Shown: one piece after another, positions 3,689 to 31,469 of the stretch
Numbering within the stretch: position 1 is the stretch's first letter
Layout: every line of letters begins with the position of its first letter
Origin: Nanobdellati archaeon
GTDB taxonomy: Archaea; EX4484-52; JAADEF01
Reading direction: 5' to 3'
DNA: 31,469 nt
NCBI GenBank assembly: GCA_026997215.1
Contig: JALWJP010000184.1
Location: 340-31,808, forward strand
The notes under the pieces: generated by a model
What the model was told of the DNA's origin: nothing
Seen by the model: the letters and a program-made list of their open reading frames with translations, nothing else
The model's database searches: none
Made by a program: the position numbers and the translations under genes

Positions 3689-4063
3689 CTATCTTATTAA
3701 TTCTTTTTCTATATCACTCTCAATACCTGATGACTCTATATGCCATATTCTCCACTTCTTTCCTTTTATTTTTAGTGCTACAACAAACCAATTATTTTTA
3801 TTGTTGATGTTCTTTATAAACTCTCTGATTTGTTTTCTTGCTTTGTAAAAGTCTGATTTATTTGTCTTTACCTGTACAAATAATGTTGATGGTGATTCAT
3901 CTTCATATATTCCTTTTTTTGGTAGTGCTATTATATCTGCTATGTTGAATATGTCCTTTTGTCCATATTTGCTCCATGTTGGACGCCATACATAATATTC
4001 TTTTGATAGATATTCCACGAATTCCTTCTCAGCTCTCTTTCCTTTTGCTACTTTGTTTACCAT
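3689..4063 (-). CDS. hjc: Archaeal Hjc-like Holliday junction resolvase (PD-(D/E)XK)
   Basis: KGKRAEKEFVEYL (G..xE), DIIAL catalytic Asp, FVQVKT (Q/ExK) pattern; size matches Hjc. Confidence 0.8.
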   Translation of the reverse strand: MVNKVAKGKRAEKEFVEYLSKEYYVWRPTWSKYGQKDIFNIADIIALPKKGIYEDESPSTLFVQVKTNKSDFYKARKQIREFIKNINNKNNWFVVALKIKGKKWRIWHIESSGIESDIEKELIR

Positions 4064-4553: not shown

Positions 4554-4709
4554 TCACCTTTCTTCAAATACGACTCTCACCGTTGTTTTATTTCCTTCAA
4601 AAACAATCACACTTCTTATTTCCCAATTTAAAAACAATGGCAAATCTTTATACATCTGCTTTGATATTTTCCAATCATCTTCAAACTTATTGACCATACG
4701 CCTCGCCAT
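4554..4709 (-). CDS. Small hypothetical protein (51 aa)
   Basis: Hand-translated MARRMVNKFEDDWKISKQMYKDLPLFLNWEIRSVIVFEGNKTTVRVVFEER; TAATG overlap with ligase stop. Confidence 0.6.
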   Translation of the reverse strand: MARRMVNKFEDDWKISKQMYKDLPLFLNWEIRSVIVFEGNKTTVRVVFEER

Positions 4710-5710
4710 TATATGCTCTTTTCTAACCTCTCTAAATATTTTTTAACCACGAACCTTTGTGCTTTTAACCTGAATTCTCTTTCAAATACCTTCCATAACT
4801 GCTTCTCTATCCACTGCCTTTCTTCATCAATAATGTCTTCTATAAATTCAGGTATTAGGTGTGCTAAATCCCTTTTCTCATTTTGTATTTTTCCTTCCTC
4901 TTTTAGGTGCTGTATTGCTTTGTTTAGTCGTGCTTCGGTTAATAGTGCTTCTATTATACCTTGCATACTCTCCATTTTCTTCTTTACATTCCATTCTTTG
5001 TTTAACTTCTCCTTAAAATCCTCTCTAACCCACTTTCCAACTAAATGAAATCCGAAATAAGATTTTGTTGAAAGCATGTCAACTGGATATGTCTTATTAT
5101 AATTCTTTATTATAATACCCTCAACTTTCTCCTTACCTAATGAACTTTCTTTATTTAAGAATTCCTTTAACATTCCTTCTTTCCATTCCCCTTCATACAT
5201 AATCCATTCCTTCTCAATACCTATCTCATCTGCTACTTTATGCTTATACCACACTCCATCATCATCTTTCTCAACTTTCCTTACCATTCCATTACTAACT
5301 AATATAATATCAAACAACACTAAATTATTTTTTGGAACTCTACCATATACCAGAACATTATGTTTTTGCCTTTCTAAATATTCTGCAAATAAATACACTT
5401 CTGTTAATAGTGGTTCTTTATTGAAGAAGTATTTATTTAACGTCTTTCTTATATTCTCCCTTAACTCGTATACTCTTTGTATTGCTGTTAAAAACATTTT
5501 TTGTTCTTTTAATATTGTTAACTCATCTCCTTCTATTATTGCTAACTCATCAACTTTTTTAGATCCTACTCTAATAGTTCCTTCTCTATCAACTTCTATT
5601 CTAAATTGACTTCCATCGTACTTCTCTGAAACTACTATCTTTCCTTCCAATAATCCACAATTCTGCATGATATTACTCATCGCATCATATACTTTTGGAT
5701 ACTTTAACAC
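4709..5710 (-). CDS. ATP-dependent RNA ligase, Rnl2-like nucleotidyltransferase
   Basis: Motif I SEKYDGSQF, motif III LFAEY, IIIa LVLFDI, IV EGIIIK, V KWVREDFKE; C-terminal TEARLNKAI segment reminiscent of the Rnl2 C domain; no OB/DNA-binding domain of DNA ligases seen. Confidence 0.8.
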   Translation of the reverse strand: MLKYPKVYDAMSNIMQNCGLLEGKIVVSEKYDGSQFRIEVDREGTIRVGSKKVDELAIIEGDELTILKEQKMFLTAIQRVYELRENIRKTLNKYFFNKEPLLTEVYLFAEYLERQKHNVLVYGRVPKNNLVLFDIILVSNGMVRKVEKDDDGVWYKHKVADEIGIEKEWIMYEGEWKEGMLKEFLNKESSLGKEKVEGIIIKNYNKTYPVDMLSTKSYFGFHLVGKWVREDFKEKLNKEWNVKKKMESMQGIIEALLTEARLNKAIQHLKEEGKIQNEKRDLAHLIPEFIEDIIDEERQWIEKQLWKVFEREFRLKAQRFVVKKYLERLEKSI

Positions 5711-19176: not shown

Positions 19177-19821
19177 GTGAAAATAGTGCAATATTCAAAA
19201 AAAAGCTATTTTTTGAATAACTATTTAAATTCTACTGATAAATACTATTATATGCCCCGATACTCTTACAATTTAGATGATTTTATAATAAAACTACTTT
19301 TAATGTCACCGGAAAAAAGATTAAAGATAATCAGAAGAATGTATAACATACTCCCTAATGCTGAACAAAAAGCTGCTTTTGCCTTACTTTATATCTATGG
19401 ATTAAGACCAGCAGAATTACTTGAATTAAAACAATCAAACTTCCAACAATTAAATGATAACACCCTTCGTGTGTTCTTACCTACTAAGAAAGGTGGTAAG
19501 ACACGTATAATAGATTTAAATATAAATGAAACACCTTTCTTAAAAGAAACATGGGAATTCATAAAATCTCGTCCTTGGAAGATATTTCCACGTTGGAATC
19601 ATGTATCTATACTCAACAACACTATATTTAAAACCATCTATGAAGTGTTAGGTATAAATATAAGTCCTTATGCCTTCCGTCATTATAGGTTATCCTTTAT
19701 AATGTATAATGGTGGAGATGTACATGAAGTTGCTGCATGGAAAGGAGCATCAGACATTAGAAGTGTAATGCCTTATCTAAGATTTAAACCTGTAAGTAAA
19801 TTTAAAAGAAAAATAAGTTAA
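19177..19821 (+). CDS. Minimal tyrosine recombinase/integrase (catalytic domain only)
   Basis: LLYIYGLRPAEL (Arg I), KKGGKTR (Lys), PYAFRHY (Arg II), SVMPYL (Tyr); likely start ATG 19252, about 25 nt after TTTAAAT; only plus-strand gene. Confidence 0.85.
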   Translation: MKIVQYSKKSYFLNNYLNSTDKYYYMPRYSYNLDDFIIKLLLMSPEKRLKIIRRMYNILPNAEQKAAFALLYIYGLRPAELLELKQSNFQQLNDNTLRVFLPTKKGGKTRIIDLNINETPFLKETWEFIKSRPWKIFPRWNHVSILNNTIFKTIYEVLGINISPYAFRHYRLSFIMYNGGDVHEVAAWKGASDIRSVMPYLRFKPVSKFKRKIS

Positions 19822-20285
19822 GGTCTTGTTATGTATGCCGCTATGGTTAATGCCGTATGGTATAACCCATCATTTGCCCTAACTTCTTTTGTTATTATCT
19901 TCATTTCATCTATCTCCCATCCTCTCATCTCAAATGCTTCTTTAAGCATATTCTCTAATTTCTCTCTAACAACTTTCTCCTCAACTTTGTCATGGTATTC
20001 ATAAAATAACCCCCCTCTTCTCCCTTTTATTGTTGCATATCCAATTCCACAACTTGCTACTCCTTCTTTTATAGTTATATGAGAATATACTGCTGGTATT
20101 ACCTCTCCTATTTCTAAGGTAGGTAGTTTGTCTATAAATTTGGCTGTCTCAGGTATAACACTACTCAACTTAACCAAATTCACATTACCTACTCCCGCCT
20201 TCAACAATGCGTTATCAAAAGAAGATAGTTCCTCTTTACCAACACCCTCACTACTATCTATATATATCCACACTTCTTCCATCAC
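19818..20285 (-). CDS. pdaD: Pyruvoyl-dependent arginine decarboxylase (makes agmatine)
   Basis: SSFDNALLKAGVGNVNLVKLSSVIP signature including the Ser-Ser autocleavage site; GLFYEY conserved Glu; 155 aa. Confidence 0.9.
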   Translation of the reverse strand: MMEEVWIYIDSSEGVGKEELSSFDNALLKAGVGNVNLVKLSSVIPETAKFIDKLPTLEIGEVIPAVYSHITIKEGVASCGIGYATIKGRRGGLFYEYHDKVEEKVVREKLENMLKEAFEMRGWEIDEMKIITKEVRANDGLYHTALTIAAYITRP

Positions 20286-20292
20286 ACATCAC

Positions 20293-21642
20293 CTATGATA
20301 TATCATTTTCATTAAGATTTAATAAATTTTTGAACCCATACAATGCTATTAACAAACTATCAAAATAATCAGGTGATTTATCCTCTCTATCTATCACCCT
20401 ATATTGTCCATATTTATTATAGTCATATCTTATGTTTATCAAATCATCAATTAATGCAGAATCCTTAGGTATTAATATCTTACCATCATCTAACAACTTC
20501 TTTAATATAAATGCCATCTCTGTTTTTATGTTCTCATACTTCTCCTTATTAAAAGGTTTAGCCATGGCATAAAACTCCTCTACATTATCATACCCTCTCT
20601 CCCTTAACATATCCACAACTCCTGCTCCAACGCCATTTGCATCAACAACTATCTTATACATATTCTCCTTGCTATAATTTGTATAGATATAACTCACATT
20701 ACTCACTACCGATGATAATTCCTTCTTCGTTAATTGTTTTATACGCCTGATATAATATTTATCCTTATGTGGTGAATATGCCAATACTGTTATCACGGTA
20801 GAATCATCACCAAACCTCGCAACATCAACCCCTATCACCATCTTTACACTCTCTTTATAAGGTACTTTGAAGTTATTGTAATCTTTATATGCCTTTTTAA
20901 TGCTTTCGTGAGAATATAATGCATCTTCATCATCAACAAACTTAACTTCATACATCTTAACAAATTCTGTATTGCTCAATAAACTCTTCATTTTCTCCAC
21001 ATCTTTTAATGATAGTCTGCCTTCTTGTACTGCCAATTTATAATCTATCTCATATACTTTGTAATCCTCATCATTATAAGTATTGAAAAAGTGGTTCTTC
21101 ATTATTGGTGTTCCGTTCTCTAATATGATGCCATCTTTCTTAACGGTTCTCATAACATAATTCCGGTATTTGTAATCGTCTATAATCACACTCTCATCAA
21201 CTATCAATAAGTCTGCATTATATAATACATTCTTCCATAACTTATCATGTATATGTGCTGCTATTATCTTGCTATTATTTTTAAAAACAATTTTATCGTC
21301 AGAAAATTCCGGTCTTGGTACACTAAAATGTTCCTTTATATATTGTTGGCTTATTAATGGGCTTCTCTCTATTAAGTTCTTTATATATCCCATAACCATC
21401 TTAGATTGTTTACTATTGTTTGACATTATCACAACTTCAACATTATCATTCAATATAGCAAATAGTAATCCCGATATTGCAGATATATAAGATTTTCCCC
21501 ATTTCGGTGGTGCTAATATCAGTAACCTTTTAGTATGGGCTAAAACATCCTCTAATATATTTAATTGTGTGTTTGTTAATTCAACTTCTGGTAACAATGT
21601 TTTCACAATCATCTTCACAAAAAAATCCACTATTATCACCAA
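20293..21642 (-). CDS. terL: Terminase large subunit (ATPase + RNase H-like nuclease)
   Basis: LTNTQ Q-motif, APPKWGKS Walker A, LLIVDES Walker B, GTP coupling motif; nuclease GVDVARFGDDST, VVDANGVG, SPDYFDS. Confidence 0.88.
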   Translation of the reverse strand: MVIIVDFFVKMIVKTLLPEVELTNTQLNILEDVLAHTKRLLILAPPKWGKSYISAISGLLFAILNDNVEVVIMSNNSKQSKMVMGYIKNLIERSPLISQQYIKEHFSVPRPEFSDDKIVFKNNSKIIAAHIHDKLWKNVLYNADLLIVDESVIIDDYKYRNYVMRTVKKDGIILENGTPIMKNHFFNTYNDEDYKVYEIDYKLAVQEGRLSLKDVEKMKSLLSNTEFVKMYEVKFVDDEDALYSHESIKKAYKDYNNFKVPYKESVKMVIGVDVARFGDDSTVITVLAYSPHKDKYYIRRIKQLTKKELSSVVSNVSYIYTNYSKENMYKIVVDANGVGAGVVDMLRERGYDNVEEFYAMAKPFNKEKYENIKTEMAFILKKLLDDGKILIPKDSALIDDLINIRYDYNKYGQYRVIDREDKSPDYFDSLLIALYGFKNLLNLNENDIS

Positions 21643-22098
21643 TTATATACTTGCTGTTTGTATCTTCTTATTAGATAACCATTCTTTATATAAATTCTTT
21701 ATCATCTCTATATTGTCTGTATGTATCTTTGTGATATTTGTTTGTTCCTCAATATCATCATCTTTCAACCTAAATGCACTTAATACCTTTCCATATTCTT
21801 TACCAATATCAACTATTGCTTTGATGGCATCTAACTTCTCCTTCGCGTTTGAGGAATAAAACAATATCTTCTGTGCTTCTTTTAAGCTTTTGGCAAATGC
21901 AAAATGTAAAGCAACGCCAACCTCTTTGACTTCCTTGGTTGACGCTGCTTTTAGGATCCATTTTATATCCCTATTTATTGTCTCATATCTAACTCCATAT
22001 TTCTCTGCTAATGCTGTTCTGTTTATATTGAATAATCCTATCTCTTCTATTAATTTCTTTATCTCTAACCTTCTCTCCATTGTTTTTAATGGTGGCAT
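21643..22098 (-). CDS. HTH protein, putative terminase small subunit
   Basis: NRTALAEKYGVRYETINRDI HTH; immediately upstream of terL. Confidence 0.6.
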   Translation of the reverse strand: MPPLKTMERRLEIKKLIEEIGLFNINRTALAEKYGVRYETINRDIKWILKAASTKEVKEVGVALHFAFAKSLKEAQKILFYSSNAKEKLDAIKAIVDIGKEYGKVLSAFRLKDDDIEEQTNITKIHTDNIEMIKNLYKEWLSNKKIQTASI

Positions 22099-22110
22099 AT
22101 CTCACACCAT

Positions 22111-22695
22111 TTATAATCCATACTCTTTAATTAAATCGTCTAATGAAATCTCAAATTCCTTCAAACAATGTGGGCATGTTATTGTGACTAATTTCTTCAT
22201 CTTCTTCTCAACTGCTTTCTCAAACTTCTCCTCTATTTCTTTTTTCTCCTTCTCTATATCTTTCTGTGTTATGGAAGTATCCTCTTTTATTATATCTAAT
22301 ATCTTCTCCAATTCCTTGCTATCGAATCCAACAACAACCTCATCTAATATTGTTAACTCTTCTCTCAATAGATCATAATCCCATGTTGAATATTCAGAGA
22401 TCTTATTGTCTGCTATTCTATATGCCCTTGCTGTTTTCTCATCCATATCCTTCACAATAACTGGTATCTTCTTATATCCTAACTCCTTTAATGCTTTGTA
22501 TCTTGCATGACCGGTTATTATCACATAATTCTTATCAACTAAAATAGGTACATTATAGCCATATTTCTGTATAGATTCTTTCAACAATTTTATTGCCTCT
22601 TTATGTACTCTTGGATTCCTCTCATATGGCTTTATCTTCTCAACATCTACCATCTTTATCTCCATATCCTTCTTGTTTGCCTTCTTTCCCATCAT
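22111..22695 (-). CDS. ParB/Srx-like N-terminal domain protein with C-terminal CPHC zinc knuckle
   Basis: IKPYERNPR, SIQKYGYNVPILVD, ITGHARYKAL, IADNK; CPHC. Confidence 0.88.
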   Translation of the reverse strand: MMGKKANKKDMEIKMVDVEKIKPYERNPRVHKEAIKLLKESIQKYGYNVPILVDKNYVIITGHARYKALKELGYKKIPVIVKDMDEKTARAYRIADNKISEYSTWDYDLLREELTILDEVVVGFDSKELEKILDIIKEDTSITQKDIEKEKKEIEEKFEKAVEKKMKKLVTITCPHCLKEFEISLDDLIKEYGL

Positions 22696-23063
22696 TTATC
22701 ACCTCTTTTATTATAATCCATGTAAAAATCTAAACTTGTTTTGTTTGGTATATCCCTGTTAATTAAATCAACTTGGTAAACAAAATCATCCATAACCCAA
22801 TATTTGTATTTTCCAAACTTAACATACTTGTAAGTCCAATTATTAAACTTCTTAGTATAACCGCATACCTTAATGAACTTCACAAAAAGTATAAAAGTGT
22901 CTAGGTCTTTGTCATCAACATCTTTTTTTAATAAATACCAATGTGGTGCTTTTTTGGCATATGTTTTCGCCCATCTCCATTTACCTAAAACCTCATACTT
23001 CCTTATAAAATTGTTTAACCTCTGTATAACATGCTCATCAGTACAAATATACATAACTATCAC
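22692..23063 (-). CDS. Aromatic-rich hypothetical protein within the ParB/IbrAB cluster
   Basis: WRWAKTYAKKAPHWY...YKYVKFGKYKYWVM; overlaps both neighbours by 4 nt. Confidence 0.75.
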   Translation of the reverse strand: MIVMYICTDEHVIQRLNNFIRKYEVLGKWRWAKTYAKKAPHWYLLKKDVDDKDLDTFILFVKFIKVCGYTKKFNNWTYKYVKFGKYKYWVMDDFVYQVDLINRDIPNKTSLDFYMDYNKRGDK

Positions 23064-23770
23064 TCATATTCAAATCCTTTCTCATTCTTATGTTTCTCCT
23101 TCCACTCCTTCTCCAACTTAACCATATTTGTTGTTTTCCATGCTTTGTTATATGGAACTTTCTCGAATAATTTGCTAAATCCTGATATATGTTTCAATCT
23201 TATTAACTCCTCTGGCTCCATACCTAACCTATTACATATCTCCTCATCACTCCAACCATTTTTCAACATATCAAACACTATCTTTGCCATTGACACAACT
23301 TGGTGTTTACCTCTTGCTCTGTTATGTCTTATTGTTGATGCCATCCTCTCATTTATATCCTTCTCTATAACTACTACAGGTAGGAATCCTTTGTTCCTAT
23401 TGTATATATCCTTGTACAACCTCATTAAAGAATATCTATGGAACCCATCAACTATTGTATATTCATCTTTATCATCATCATAAAATGCAACAACTGGTTG
23501 TGTATATCCATCTTCATATACACTTTTATATAGCAATTCCATTTCAGTATTGGCAACAATATTAGGATTATAATCGTTTGGTTTAACTTTCTCATATCTT
23601 ATCCATCTGACAAAATCAACTGGATTAACTGAAAATGGTGAGAGTCTATGCAACTTATCCCTTATTGTATTTATGACTTCTGCCTTACTATCTAAATCAT
23701 CAACACTATCCATTAACTCCTCTATCTCCTTCACTATCTTATCTAATTTATTCTTATATTTCTTCTCCAT
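23060..23770 (-). CDS. IbrB-like ParB/Srx domain protein
   Basis: PVDFVRW, NDYNPN, SVYEDGYTQPVV, IVDGFHRY, ASTIRHNRARGKH; start moved to ATG 23770 after AGGTGA. Confidence 0.88.
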   Translation of the reverse strand: MEKKYKNKLDKIVKEIEELMDSVDDLDSKAEVINTIRDKLHRLSPFSVNPVDFVRWIRYEKVKPNDYNPNIVANTEMELLYKSVYEDGYTQPVVAFYDDDKDEYTIVDGFHRYSLMRLYKDIYNRNKGFLPVVVIEKDINERMASTIRHNRARGKHQVVSMAKIVFDMLKNGWSDEEICNRLGMEPEELIRLKHISGFSKLFEKVPYNKAWKTTNMVKLEKEWKEKHKNEKGFEYE

Positions 23771-24887
23771 ACCCTTCACCTTCTTTCTGTTTTTTCTTAG
23801 TATAACGATGATATTCCCAATCAATCACTCTCCTAACCTTCTTTAATAATGCAAACTCATCAAAATCTCCCTTGATAACTGCCATAACTTGTTTCTTAAT
23901 GAAGTGGTCATAATTGGGCATATCTCCATACTTAACATCCATCTTATGTACAAAATTAAGCATATCCTTTGCTTTCTCTTTTGGTATCAACTTTTCTATC
24001 AAATAATCTCGGTATTCTTTCCAATTCTCAAACATATAGGGCAACTCAATCTCACCCAACATATCCATAAATTTAGTATAAGAATGTATGCCATGCAATC
24101 TCTTAACTAATTTATTATATAATTCAGCATCAACTTCTTGTAAATATTCTAATGAATATAACGCACCTTCATGGTGTAGGCTACTAACTCTCATATTCTT
24201 TATTGGCACTCCTTTCTGGTATTGTAAATCATAAATCTTATTATAAGGAAGGTTATTATCATGTATGTATTTCCAAACATCAGTGTAACTCCAATCATAA
24301 ATTATTGCGAAGTTATAATGTAATTGATTCTTGTTTCCTCTTCCCCACGTTATGTTCTTGTAAGATAATCTTGCTGTTAATGCTGAAAATCTTGTTGGGC
24401 TCTCTTCTGCTCTTAAACCATATATAACTGCTGTCTTTGTGTTCTTCCAATAATAATCTCTTATTCCATCAAACAAATCATAGAAATCTATAACATTGAA
24501 TTTATTCTCCTTTATTGCAATATCGTCTTTCTCCCTCAACCACTCCTCACCTTCTCTCCAACACCATAAATACTTATCCCTTGTTATTGCTGTTGCATTC
24601 ACTAATCTAAATTCTCCTTGGAACCAATAAGGATCCACATTTTTGTCATACATCACCTTTCTGACCAACTCTATTGTTTGTGGCCACTCTGCTTCTTGGT
24701 CTATAAATATAACTGGTAGTGGCAATACTCCTCTTCTTTTTGCTTCTTTCAATGTTATGTCTAATATAACCGTACTATCCTTTCCTCCTGAAAAATTAAC
24801 AACAACATTATCAAACTCATCAAAAATATATTTAATCCTTTCCTTAGCTGCTTCTACAACATTTTTATTTAAATACACTTTCATCAA
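23754..24887 (-). CDS. IbrA-like PAPS-reductase-family PP-loop protein
   Basis: VNFSGGKDS PP-loop, FIDQEAE, GLRAEES, IYDWSYTDVW, YNKIYD; only one Cys, so no APS-reductase Fe-S motif. Confidence 0.88.
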   Translation of the reverse strand: MMKVYLNKNVVEAAKERIKYIFDEFDNVVVNFSGGKDSTVILDITLKEAKRRGVLPLPVIFIDQEAEWPQTIELVRKVMYDKNVDPYWFQGEFRLVNATAITRDKYLWCWREGEEWLREKDDIAIKENKFNVIDFYDLFDGIRDYYWKNTKTAVIYGLRAEESPTRFSALTARLSYKNITWGRGNKNQLHYNFAIIYDWSYTDVWKYIHDNNLPYNKIYDLQYQKGVPIKNMRVSSLHHEGALYSLEYLQEVDAELYNKLVKRLHGIHSYTKFMDMLGEIELPYMFENWKEYRDYLIEKLIPKEKAKDMLNFVHKMDVKYGDMPNYDHFIKKQVMAVIKGDFDEFALLKKVRRVIDWEYHRYTKKKQKEGEGYGEEI

Positions 24888-25186
24888 TCAACACCTCTGT
24901 AATTAACATAATACTTCTTATTCTCCCTTCTTATAATATTGTTCTCATTAAGGAATTGAACATGTTTTTGTACCTTATTATAACTTGCTCCACATTCTTT
25001 TGTTAAATTGTATACATTTCTTATAACTTTATTACTAATTTTATCTAATATACACATCATCAATTCAGGATCATATCCTTTATATTCTGCATATAAGTAT
25101 ATAAGAAATAATGTATAATGTTCATTACAAAAACACGTTCCTGCTAATCTCTTGTCTCCACCTCTACCACATATACTACATTTCAT
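24884..25186 (-). CDS. Zinc finger + winged-HTH protein
   Basis: CSIC...CNEH; LTKECGASYNKVQKHVQFL...IIRR HTH-wing. Confidence 0.65.
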   Translation of the reverse strand: MKCSICGRGGDKRLAGTCFCNEHYTLFLIYLYAEYKGYDPELMMCILDKISNKVIRNVYNLTKECGASYNKVQKHVQFLNENNIIRRENKKYYVNYRGVD

Positions 25187-30415: not shown

Positions 30416-30679
30416 TTATATATTTTTTACCTCTAAAATAATGAACTCCTTTAATATACTCAACAAATTATCAAATGATTGTTGTTTGAAGTGATATTCC
30501 ATACTTTTAATATCTTCCTCATTATCTGATTTAAATTCAAAATTATTATTATACCACCTTACATGATGATCTGAGATTTCTAAAACAAACCATACTAGGC
30601 TAAGTCCATCGTAATAAATAATTGTTGTTATATCATAACTATCCATTAATGCTTTTATTTTCTTTTTTATATCCATCAC
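30416..30679 (-). CDS. Hypothetical protein
   Basis: 87-aa ORF overlapping the vWA stop by 4 nt. Confidence 0.65.
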   Translation of the reverse strand: MMDIKKKIKALMDSYDITTIIYYDGLSLVWFVLEISDHHVRWYNNNFEFKSDNEEDIKSMEYHFKQQSFDNLLSILKEFIILEVKNI

Positions 30680-31469
30680 CTCTCTATTTTTATTATTTTA
30701 TCATGATATTCTTTAATATACTCATCTGTTCCTTGTGATGTTATTATCCAAATAAGATTATTTATTTTATTTCTGTATTTCTCATAATTATATGTATCCG
30801 TCCATCCATCTGTTAATATCGCTAATTGCTTTATATTATTATCTACTGCCCATTTCATTCCTTTAATCATATCTGTTCCTCCACCTCCTTTTGCTTTTTT
30901 GAATATTTTCTTTAACTTCTTTATGTCGTTTTGATAGAGTTCTGTTTCTTCTTCGTGTTTTACTTCTGTATCTATGAATGCTATTTTTAATTTAACATTT
31001 TGATATTGCCTTATTAAATCTGATAATACTGATAAGAACTCACCTAACTCATCTTCACTTATTGATCCTGATGTATCTATCACTGCTCCTAATCTAATTT
31101 CCTCTCCATAAGTTGACGGTAGCGGTGCATTTATTATCCATGTTTTTCTGTGATATCTTTTCCAAGAATAATCTTTCTTTATACTTTTATTTAATGAAGA
31201 TTTTAGAATGTTTTTCCAATTGATTTTTTTAGTTAATACTTCATTTAGTATTCTATCTATATCTTGTGATAATTTACCTCCTTGTTTAGCATGTTGTATC
31301 CCTTTTTCTAAATCTGTTTCTATTTCTTTTCTTTCTTCTACTGATAGTTCGTCATAATCATCAATATCTTCAAATTCGTTGAAAGAATCTAATACACTTT
31401 CATCAATCTCTCCATCTTTTAAATTATCATTATTTTTCCATCGTGGATCATAAGAATTATCATTTTTTC
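30676..31469 (-). CDS. DUF2201-like vWA-domain protein, 5'-partial
   Basis: VIDTSGSIS MIDAS, GGGGTD, ILTDG; the frame stays open to the window end (...INWKNILK...YSWKRYHRK...LPST..., typical DUF2201 linker), so the track start at 31083 is internal. Confidence 0.88.
   Translation of the reverse strand, partial: KNDNSYDPRWKNNDNLKDGEIDESVLDSFNEFEDIDDYDELSVEERKEIETDLEKGIQHAKQGGKLSQDIDRILNEVLTKKINWKNILKSSLNKSIKKDYSWKRYHRKTWIINAPLPSTYGEEIRLGAVIDTSGSISEDELGEFLSVLSDLIRQYQNVKLKIAFIDTEVKHEEETELYQNDIKKLKKIFKKAKGGGGTDMIKGMKWAVDNNIKQLAILTDGWTDTYNYEKYRNKINNLIWIITSQGTDEYIKEYHDKIIKIER

Follow-up and report, generated by a model that had tools for sequence, protein, structure and literature searches.

A packaging-proximal IbrA/IbrB cassette extended by an arginine decarboxylase in a virus-like element of a DPANN archaeon, and its possible link to amine attachment

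The gene run

The window analysed here, a stretch of 31,469 nucleotides, is nearly the whole of contig C184 (31.8 kb), the longest contig in a genome bin of 0.9 Mb (82% complete, 32% GC), and its bearer is a DPANN archaeon from hydrothermal vents. On the minus strand, from 24887 to 19818, lie seven open reading frames (ORFs) that encode, in this order, an IbrA-like PP-loop protein (IbrA), an IbrB-like protein (IbrB), a small protein here called unkD, a second ParB N-terminal-domain protein (ParB2), a putative small terminase subunit (TerS), the large terminase subunit (TerL) and the arginine decarboxylase PdaD. This co-oriented run had been proposed in a preliminary description of the same DNA, and all seven ORFs were recovered at the positions listed in Table 1. 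Adjacent genes overlap by at least 4 nucleotides or are separated by gaps of no more than 12; these tight junctions, together with the convergent end against an integrase gene, are compatible with a single operon. The best description of the region is a packaging-proximal cassette, extended by a host-derived PdaD, in a tailed-virus-like element; the DPANN archaeon is either the organism infected by this element or the one with which it was binned.

Table 1. Genes of the run and its borders (window positions; E-values of the matches)
Feature	Position	Strand	Basis or remark
Small winged-helix protein	24884..25186	-	HTH_45 2.3e-4, below cut-off; stop overlaps IbrA start by 4 nucleotides
IbrA-like PP-loop ATP pyrophosphatase	23754..24887	-	PAPS_reduct 1.7e-20, DUF3440 8e-07, phrog_2302 1.6e-80
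IbrB-like ParB/Srx-type protein	23060..23824	-	phrog_2159 8e-76
unkD protein, 123 residues	22692..23063	-	no Pfam, PHROG or NCBIfam match
ParB2, second ParB N-terminal-domain protein	22111..22695	-	ParB_N 2.5e-13, phrog_620 9e-54
Putative TerS, 151 residues	21643..22098	-	position and size alone
TerL	20293..21642	-	Terminase_6N and Terminase_6C above cut-off, phrog_2 2.4e-24
PdaD, last gene of the operon	19818..20285	-	PvlArgDC 5.6e-31
Tyrosine integrase, operon boundary, outside the system	19177..19821	+	Phage_integrase 6.9e-12, phrog_1; 4-nucleotide overlap with PdaD, convergent

Proteins of the cassette

The window IbrA consists of a domain with the phosphoadenosine phosphosulfate (PAPS) reductase fold followed by a helical DUF3440 domain, both recognised above cut-off (PF01507, 74 bits; PF11922, 29.4 bits). 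It carries the SGGKDS PP-loop and exactly one cysteine, as had been noted before. An alignment of 45 IbrA sequences (33-47% identity) has invariant positions in the PP-loop and at about 30 further residues, including R17, D63-Q64-E65, R159, E162, R166, D198, R233, H239-E240 and R263; no cysteine is invariant, and Cys109 occurs in only 56% of the sequences. The lack of a conserved cysteine makes Dnd-type or CysH-type sulfur chemistry unlikely; the statement that cysteine desulfurase and Dnd genes are missing also held for the 40 window ORFs scanned. A structure of IbrA predicted with AlphaFold2 (mean predicted local distance difference test score, pLDDT, 90.6) was matched best in Foldseek by PAPS/APS reductases, FAD synthase/FMN adenylyltransferase and CysD (E 1e-7 to 1e-5), and more weakly by TilS, TtuA, NAD synthetase and LarE, and the NCBIfam profiles gave sub-threshold superfamily matches only. 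TilS had earlier been cited as a precedent for IbrA, a comparison that these data do not favour: the TilS chain (E 5.7e-4, template modelling score 0.33) ranks behind 35 chains of PAPS reductase, FMN adenylyltransferase and CysD. Taken together, sequence and modelled fold point to IbrA being an ATP alpha-hydrolase or adenylyltransferase that works without thiol chemistry.

Four more specific assignments of IbrA were considered and rejected. Identity with DndC is contradicted by the score of TIGR03183 (33 bits against a cut-off of 290), by the lack of an invariant cysteine and by the absence of Dnd partners from the window. A CysH-type PAPS/APS reductase would be expected to have a C-terminal catalytic cysteine, whereas IbrA conserves none, and TIGR02057 and TIGR00434 reach 30-31 bits, far under their cut-offs. 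The lack of a conserved cysteine likewise speaks against a sulfurtransferase, and TilS is a distant Foldseek match with no TilS family match in the profile scans.

The motifs DGFHRY and RHNRARGKH of IbrB are invariant. Its relation to ParB is weak in profile searches, with ParB_N of Pfam scoring 19.8 bits against a cut-off of 26.3 and the PDB profiles of Noc and 1VK1 matching at E 0.04-0.4. With the TTG start listed in Table 1, IbrB overlaps IbrA by 71 nucleotides (23754-23824), and homologues align only from about residue 68; the real start is probably, judging from the sequence, an internal ATG at residue 19, near 23770. ParB2 is a clear member of the family (ParB_N 50.3 bits against 26.3), and its matches include SerK and SbnI.

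The unkD protein contains a core domain of about 80 residues with the motifs FAKT(M)P..PHxY and YKYWTM..LINR. A hidden Markov model of this domain recovered 57 copies, every one of them in a locus that bears IbrA and IbrB. Its AlphaFold2 model (pLDDT 89) matched uncharacterised proteins in AFDB, and Foldseek returned no PDB fold. Elsewhere the domain is fused to class-I S-adenosylmethionine (SAM) methyltransferases (seven of the ten fusion proteins scanned), to SET domains and to AdoMet_dc.

TerL is recognised by PF03237 (26.7 bits, cut-off 22) and PF17289 (27.5 bits, cut-off 22.6). The label TerS given to the gene before it in the preliminary description stands for its position and not for its family: a small gene is in place ahead of TerL, and related cassettes have one of 119-150 residues at the same spot, but the protein belongs to no recognised TerS family or fold, with no Pfam or NCBIfam match and a sole match to phrog_15023, a family of unknown function (1.8e-4).

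Distribution of the cassette

An alignment search with IbrB found homologues at 50-65% identity in more than 555 IMG/VR contigs. The cassette counts given below refer to the best 80 of the IMG/VR loci selected by IbrB; the scans rested on selected peptide patterns, with 80 loci each, and related viruses are non-independent samples. In these loci IbrA is found in 72-73 of 80, ParB2 in 63-67 and unkD in 25-40. IbrA-IbrB-unkD-ParB is a conserved cassette, usually beside the terminase and most often immediately ahead of the small gene and TerL. In GenBank, 224 of 50,697 phage records contain IbrA-like genes, and the IbrA/IbrB pair is placed there at the end of the genome or between TerL and the portal gene. 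Pfam annotation of 148 ORFs located within the cassettes of the 80 loci, or immediately upstream of them, counted about 20 class-I SAM methyltransferases, 9 AdoMet_dc, 8 GNAT, 4 N6_N4 DNA methylases and 2 SET proteins.

PdaD: identity, linkage and origin

The window PdaD (PF01862, 108 bits) aligns its self-cleavage site S41-S42 with Ser52/Ser53 of the proenzyme of M. jannaschii (1N2M), and the helper residues Asn36 and Glu96 are conserved. Its arginine specificity is putative, with the TIGR00286 equivalog below its cut-off (91.4 against 106.95 bits).

The preliminary description had suggested examining the co-occurrence of pdaD with ibrA/ibrB in other viral genomes, and a linkage was found, which is not obligatory. 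An alignment search with PdaD gave 11 IMG/VR contigs, and all those with enough upstream sequence carry unkD-IbrA-IbrB-ParB2 a few genes before PdaD, which is followed by TerS-TerL-portal; two more contigs with PdaD and the cassette came from a search with TerL. All small PdaD-bearing viral contigs with enough flanking sequence have the cassette in the same operon, namely L031, L033, L034/L035, L036, L037, L040, L123, L130 and L290. A 24-sequence PdaD alignment was too diverse for deriving search patterns and a word-based protein search gave 3 matches only; broader patterns brought in 19 further IMG/VR contigs, among them L290, a bona fide tailed phage. In L290, PdaD comes after an unkD-methyltransferase and a methylase-like gene and is itself followed by IbrA, IbrB, ParB2, TerS, TerL and portal, its stop codon overlapping the IbrA start codon.

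Phylogenetic analysis indicates that PdaD has joined such cassettes at least three times, in the window from the DPANN host lineage, in a Bacillota-type phage group and in phage L290. In the PdaD tree the window sequence groups with the PdaDs of the host genus (Shimodaira-Hasegawa-like approximate likelihood ratio support 100), nested in Thermococci; the first IMG/VR phage group forms a clade (97-100) inside Bacillota PdaDs; and L290 falls in a long-type clade. These well-supported branches force at least three origins of the cassette-linked enzyme. The IbrA tree places PdaD-linked cassettes in at least three positions, interleaved with PdaD-free ones and requiring at least 3-4 gains. A single shared origin of all IbrA/IbrB-linked PdaDs is contradicted by the trees and by the approximately unbiased test, which rejected a single clade (difference in log-likelihood 90, p 0.018) for a group defined after the tree had been seen.

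The host bin encodes its own PdaD (contig C48, 2786-3226), an agmatinase and a deoxyhypusine synthase. The PdaDs of the host genus (G000:C48:2786-3226, L004, L005) form a long-branched clade inside those of Thermococci (L198-L229). The sequences suggest that the DPANN lineage took PdaD from Thermococcales, possibly its own host, and that the virus later took it from the DPANN lineage. An alignment search of the genome collection with the viral Bacillota-type PdaD gave no matching cellular gene.

Other genes accompany PdaD in the viral loci. The space between ParB2 and PdaD is filled by two unannotated families of 180-280 residues, c20 and c9 (L031:7847-9231, L037:8338-9965, L033:7552-8840 and relatives); one member has a weak Glyco_transf_25 match, and c20 was seen only in PdaD-positive loci (7 of 12). 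In several phages of the Bacillota-type group a radical SAM gene lies between IbrA and IbrB or directly after TerS (L031:5682-6530, L136, L034:10129-10962). PdaD is also present in large or jumbo phages with no IbrA (L276-L289, L291-L294), including five 95-100% complete genomes of 70-285 kb.

A second decarboxylase family

The linkage between decarboxylase and cassette proved wider than first described, since an unrelated family, SpeD-like (AdoMet_dc), has been recruited too, in one case by gene fusion. SpeD-like enzymes are non-homologous to PdaD, both being pyruvoyl decarboxylases. Of the 80 loci selected by IbrB, nine, belonging to at least three IbrA clades, have such a gene inside the cassette, in the order ParB2-SpeD-unkD-(X)-IbrA-IbrB-TerS-TerL, and all nine enzymes keep the pyruvoyl-forming serine motif. 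At L116 SpeD and IbrA overlap at their start and stop codons. The gene fusion occurs at L065, where one protein combines unkD with a SpeD-like enzyme. This enzyme shares 52.6% identity with the 'AdoMetDC' of pelagiphage HTVC201P, for which biochemical work has demonstrated arginine decarboxylase activity (Michaelis constant 0.87 mM) and none on ornithine or lysine (PMC9992855). The enzyme at L109 is 51% identical to that of HTVC201P, and the remaining seven are too distant for a substrate assignment; one clade with the canonical ESH motif may, by that motif, represent true S-adenosylmethionine decarboxylase (AdoMetDC).

Neither SpeD-like nor PdaD genes were found in 65 IbrA/IbrB-negative loci of phages with a related terminase (for SpeD, Fisher p 0.004). 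In GenBank, SpeD-like genes are present in about 80 of the 50,697 phage records (about 0.16%), in cyanophages, pelagiphages and Sinorhizobium phages, and none of these phages comes from a genus that holds IbrA.

Possible function and alternative explanations

The presence of two analogous enzymes in one neighbourhood, one of them joined by fusion, is a classical comparative-genomic sign of a shared pathway, and the product of the decarboxylase probably feeds the cassette. As a whole, the findings are best explained by an amine supply combined with an IbrA-driven attachment of the amine, with viral DNA as the most probable acceptor, an explanation to which we assign slightly less than an even chance. 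In this scheme PdaD would increase the supply of agmatine late in infection, and IbrA, as a cysteine-free PP-loop enzyme, would use ATP to adenylate the acceptor, with IbrB and the ParB proteins aiding by substrate loading or positioning. The amine would then displace AMP and become covalently attached, the donor being agmatine in the window virus and agmatine, decarboxylated SAM or another amine elsewhere; the unkD-linked SAM methyltransferases, SET domains and GNATs of sister cassettes could tailor the amine further, either as donor or once appended. Viral DNA, modified before or during packaging, would most probably be the acceptor. Adenylation followed by amine attack is proposed as the most parsimonious route open to a cysteine-free PP-loop enzyme, and DNA is favoured as acceptor because of the two ParB-type proteins, the constant adjacency to the terminase and the precedents of DndB/DndC and DpdA/DpdB. 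Agmatine on DNA is a plausible hypothesis, of which we infer every chemical step as well as the identity of the acceptor.

A more general form of this proposal is a modular, ATP-driven attachment of amines to viral DNA at packaging, whether to a base or, as a phosphoramidate, to the backbone, with interchangeable donors: agmatine made by PdaD or a SpeD-type enzyme, an aminopropyl group supplied through true AdoMetDC, or amines of the host in viruses that lack a decarboxylase gene. Enzymes linked to unkD would add methyl and acetyl groups, and the whole would amount to a new class of DNA modification. We regard this extension as possible but doubtful.

Several observations weigh against amine attachment to DNA as the role of PdaD and the cassette. 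A decarboxylase is missing from 71 of the 80 IbrB-selected cassettes (about 89%), PdaD occurs in none of the 80, and neither the 224 IbrA-bearing GenBank records nor, with two queries, any of the 50,697 records contain it; viral PdaD is hence not required by the cassette, which mostly uses host-supplied substrates. Seven sibling phages keep IbrA/IbrB without PdaD. Seventeen other viral PdaD loci lie in large-phage contexts, next to T4 gp19, Tad3, ribonucleotide reductase or thymidylate kinase, and 14 of these records (five of them 95-100% complete), searched whole, gave no PAPS_reduct match above cut-off; the validated pelagiphage arginine decarboxylase sits between an exonuclease and a ribonucleotide reductase, with no IbrA/IbrB. 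Such standalone viral arginine decarboxylases indicate that these enzymes also work without the cassette. In the window, PdaD is terminal and lies beside the integrase, a typical moron position, in an element whose host owns PdaD, agmatinase and deoxyhypusine synthase. The nearest folds of IbrA work on small molecules, TilS being a weaker match, and the methyltransferases found fused to unkD are of the class-I and SET types and not typical DNA methyltransferases. The co-occurrence of PdaD with the cassette, taken by itself, would be non-significant if the local frequency of IbrA/IbrB in the relevant phages were 10-20% and not at most 1%, and the weight of the argument is carried by the fusion, the position inside the cassette and the second enzyme family.

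A serious rival therefore remains for this window, namely that PdaD is an independent auxiliary metabolic gene that provides agmatine or polyamines, for translation (hypusination of aIF5A, agmatidine in tRNA-Ile) or as counter-ions for the condensation of DNA in the capsid, and that the vicinity of the terminase merely gathers packaging-time genes and morons. We give this a substantial minority of our confidence. Five complete large phages have PdaD by itself, pelagiphages have the SpeD-type arginine decarboxylase by itself, polyamine enzymes are known to be encoded by viruses (PMC9992855), and the host consumes agmatine through agmatinase and deoxyhypusine synthase. Moreover, the window gene is the last of its run and adjoins the integrase, and in the Bacillota-type phage group the surroundings of PdaD are variable and include GNAT, glycosyltransferase-like and radical SAM genes. 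A simple hot spot leaves unexplained, however, why decarboxylases are absent from IbrA/IbrB-negative relatives with the same terminase, why SpeD-like genes lie amid the genes of the cassette and, in one case, are fused to the cassette-specific unkD, and why two unrelated families converged on one place at least six times.

If the cassette does use the amine, the acceptor may be something other than DNA, either a small molecule, giving a nucleotide-amine conjugate, or a protein of the virion, the packaging machinery or the host, for instance in an anti-defence or regulatory role. Such an acceptor matches the fold neighbours of IbrA (PAPS reductase, FMN adenylyltransferase, CysD) and the methyltransferase types at least equally well: class-I and SET methyltransferases of the kind fused to unkD usually target proteins or small molecules, GNATs are frequent neighbours, and relatives of the ParB/Srx proteins include small-molecule and protein kinases, as the SerK and SbnI matches of ParB2 illustrate. 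In addition, IbrA and IbrB of E. coli were found as activators of prophage gene expression. We consider a non-DNA acceptor unlikely overall, given the two ParB-type, DNA-associated proteins, the position of the cassette beside TerS/TerL, the recurrence of N6_N4 DNA methylases among the neighbours and the role of ParB-like proteins in DNA modification by DndB/DndC and DpdA/DpdB (PMC10853773, PMC12839542). A purely regulatory role, in which IbrA and IbrB would be late-gene co-activators with no modification chemistry and the decarboxylase links coincidental, recalls the historical name of the family, and the cassette does lie just ahead of late (packaging) genes. Late activators of many phages are encoded just before the late genes. 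Such a role appears very improbable, since 45 diverged IbrAs share an invariant PP-loop and about 30 further invariant polar residues, which indicates an enzyme, and since methyltransferases, decarboxylases and acetyltransferases surround the cassette.

IbrA/IbrB-like pairs are common in the genomes of phages and archaeal viruses and are often read as sulfur-metabolism or partition genes. The repeated recruitment of decarboxylases gives the search for the substrate a first concrete starting point that can be tested: an amine, which in the window virus would be agmatine. Should the acceptor be DNA, amine attachment would represent a new hypermodification chemistry, relevant to restriction evasion, sequencing artefacts and enzyme tools, and would explain a gene pair that has been annotated for years as 'PAPS reductase / ParB', or as an auxiliary gene of sulfur metabolism, in hundreds of phages; should it not be DNA, the annotation of a frequent viral 'cysH' gene would still be corrected. 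In either case the metabolic genes of viruses now include PdaD-type arginine decarboxylases, carried in this instance by a rare putative virus of the DPANN archaea.

The element and its host

The contig resembles a DPANN mobile element that is complete or nearly so. It encodes TerL, but PHROG and Pfam scans of the window gave no match to portal, capsid (HK97 included) or tail families, and the contig shows no terminal repeat or other sign of circularity. The window TerL and PdaD as single-protein queries had no match in IMG/VR, TerL had none in metagenome contigs, so that close relatives of the virus were not found, and IbrA was not found in the 41 other genomes of the host phylum that were searched. 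Neither TiaS nor spermidine synthase was found in the incomplete host genome, nor a TiaS domain in the window.

Upstream of IbrA, the small winged-helix protein may be a regulator of the operon; its membership of the system is uncertain. A phage-type Dam N6-adenine methyltransferase (2268-2714; PF05869, 6e-29), an RNA ligase (4709-5710) and a weak RusA-like resolvase (3689-4063) lie elsewhere in the window, and the Dam gene shows that at least one conventional DNA modification is encoded away from the cassette. Other genes of the contig encode a PD-(D/E)XK nuclease, an AAA_24 ATPase and two proteins of about 1000 residues, one with DUF2341. A MoxR-type AAA ATPase and a VWA-like protein (DUF2201) are encoded upstream of the cassette (271-1338 and 30676-31467), the VWA gene running past the contig end; a MoxR and VWA-like pair is also found upstream in unrelated Bacillota-type PdaD phages (L031:2072-4231, with DUF7192 there).

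Relation to known systems

A literature search found no paper dealing with what phage IbrA/IbrB do biochemically, with agmatine as a component of DNA or with a link between speD and PAPS reductase, nor any on PdaD-type enzymes in viruses, on the unkD domain or on a recurrent coupling of pyruvoyl decarboxylases with IbrA/IbrB. The closest relatives in gene content are IbrA/IbrB of E. coli and their phage homologues (PHROG 2302 and 2159), which have the same core, PAPS_reduct with DUF3440 next to a ParB/Srx-type protein, and which lie beside terminase and portal in phages of Flavobacterium, Mycobacterium, Arthrobacter and Streptococcus. Cultured phages with this core include Flavobacterium FCL-2 and FCV-1, mycobacteriophages of cluster B and Streptococcus phages. 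Unlike the 224 IbrA-bearing GenBank phages, which have no PdaD, the core in the window is joined to an arginine decarboxylase.

TilS, a PP-loop enzyme, and TiaS, for which the amine is agmatine, both act on C34 of tRNA-Ile, activating the base with ATP before the amine attacks. Base pairing would be altered if a cytosine in DNA were modified at C2 by such chemistry. Thymidine hypermodification of the phiW-14 type proceeds through 5-hydroxymethyl-deoxyuridine, with a kinase and aGPT-Pplase enzymes, and is not known to involve a PP-loop enzyme. None of the enzymes of that route, whether for 5-hydroxymethyl-deoxyuridine, kinase or aGPT-Pplase, was seen among the window ORFs scanned. The likeness lies in the type of product, since phiW-14, SP10 and ViI place an amine or polyamine on viral DNA, as in putrescinyl-thymine (PMC5889632).

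DndB/DndC and BrxP of BREX type 4 combine a PP-loop enzyme of the PAPS reductase family with a ParB-superfamily protein and act on DNA (PMC10853773). The window differs from Dnd in that the desulfurase DndA, DndD and DndE were not found and IbrA lacks the cysteine dyad of DndC. In DpdA/DpdB a ParB-like ATPase and a modifying enzyme insert 7-deazaguanine into DNA (PMC12839542); unlike that system, the window has neither a transglycosylase nor a gene for deazaguanine synthesis. The polyamine enzymes of HTVC201P and PBCV-1 are likewise encoded by viruses, and HTVC201P also makes agmatine with a pyruvoyl enzyme (PMC9992855). The window PdaD belongs to the unrelated PvlArgDC family, which was not reported from viruses in that study, and neither gene context nor PAPS reductase nor ParB is mentioned there. 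Taken together, the core cassette, although uncharacterised, and viral arginine decarboxylases were already known, and there is a realistic chance that their combination belongs to a categorically new modification.

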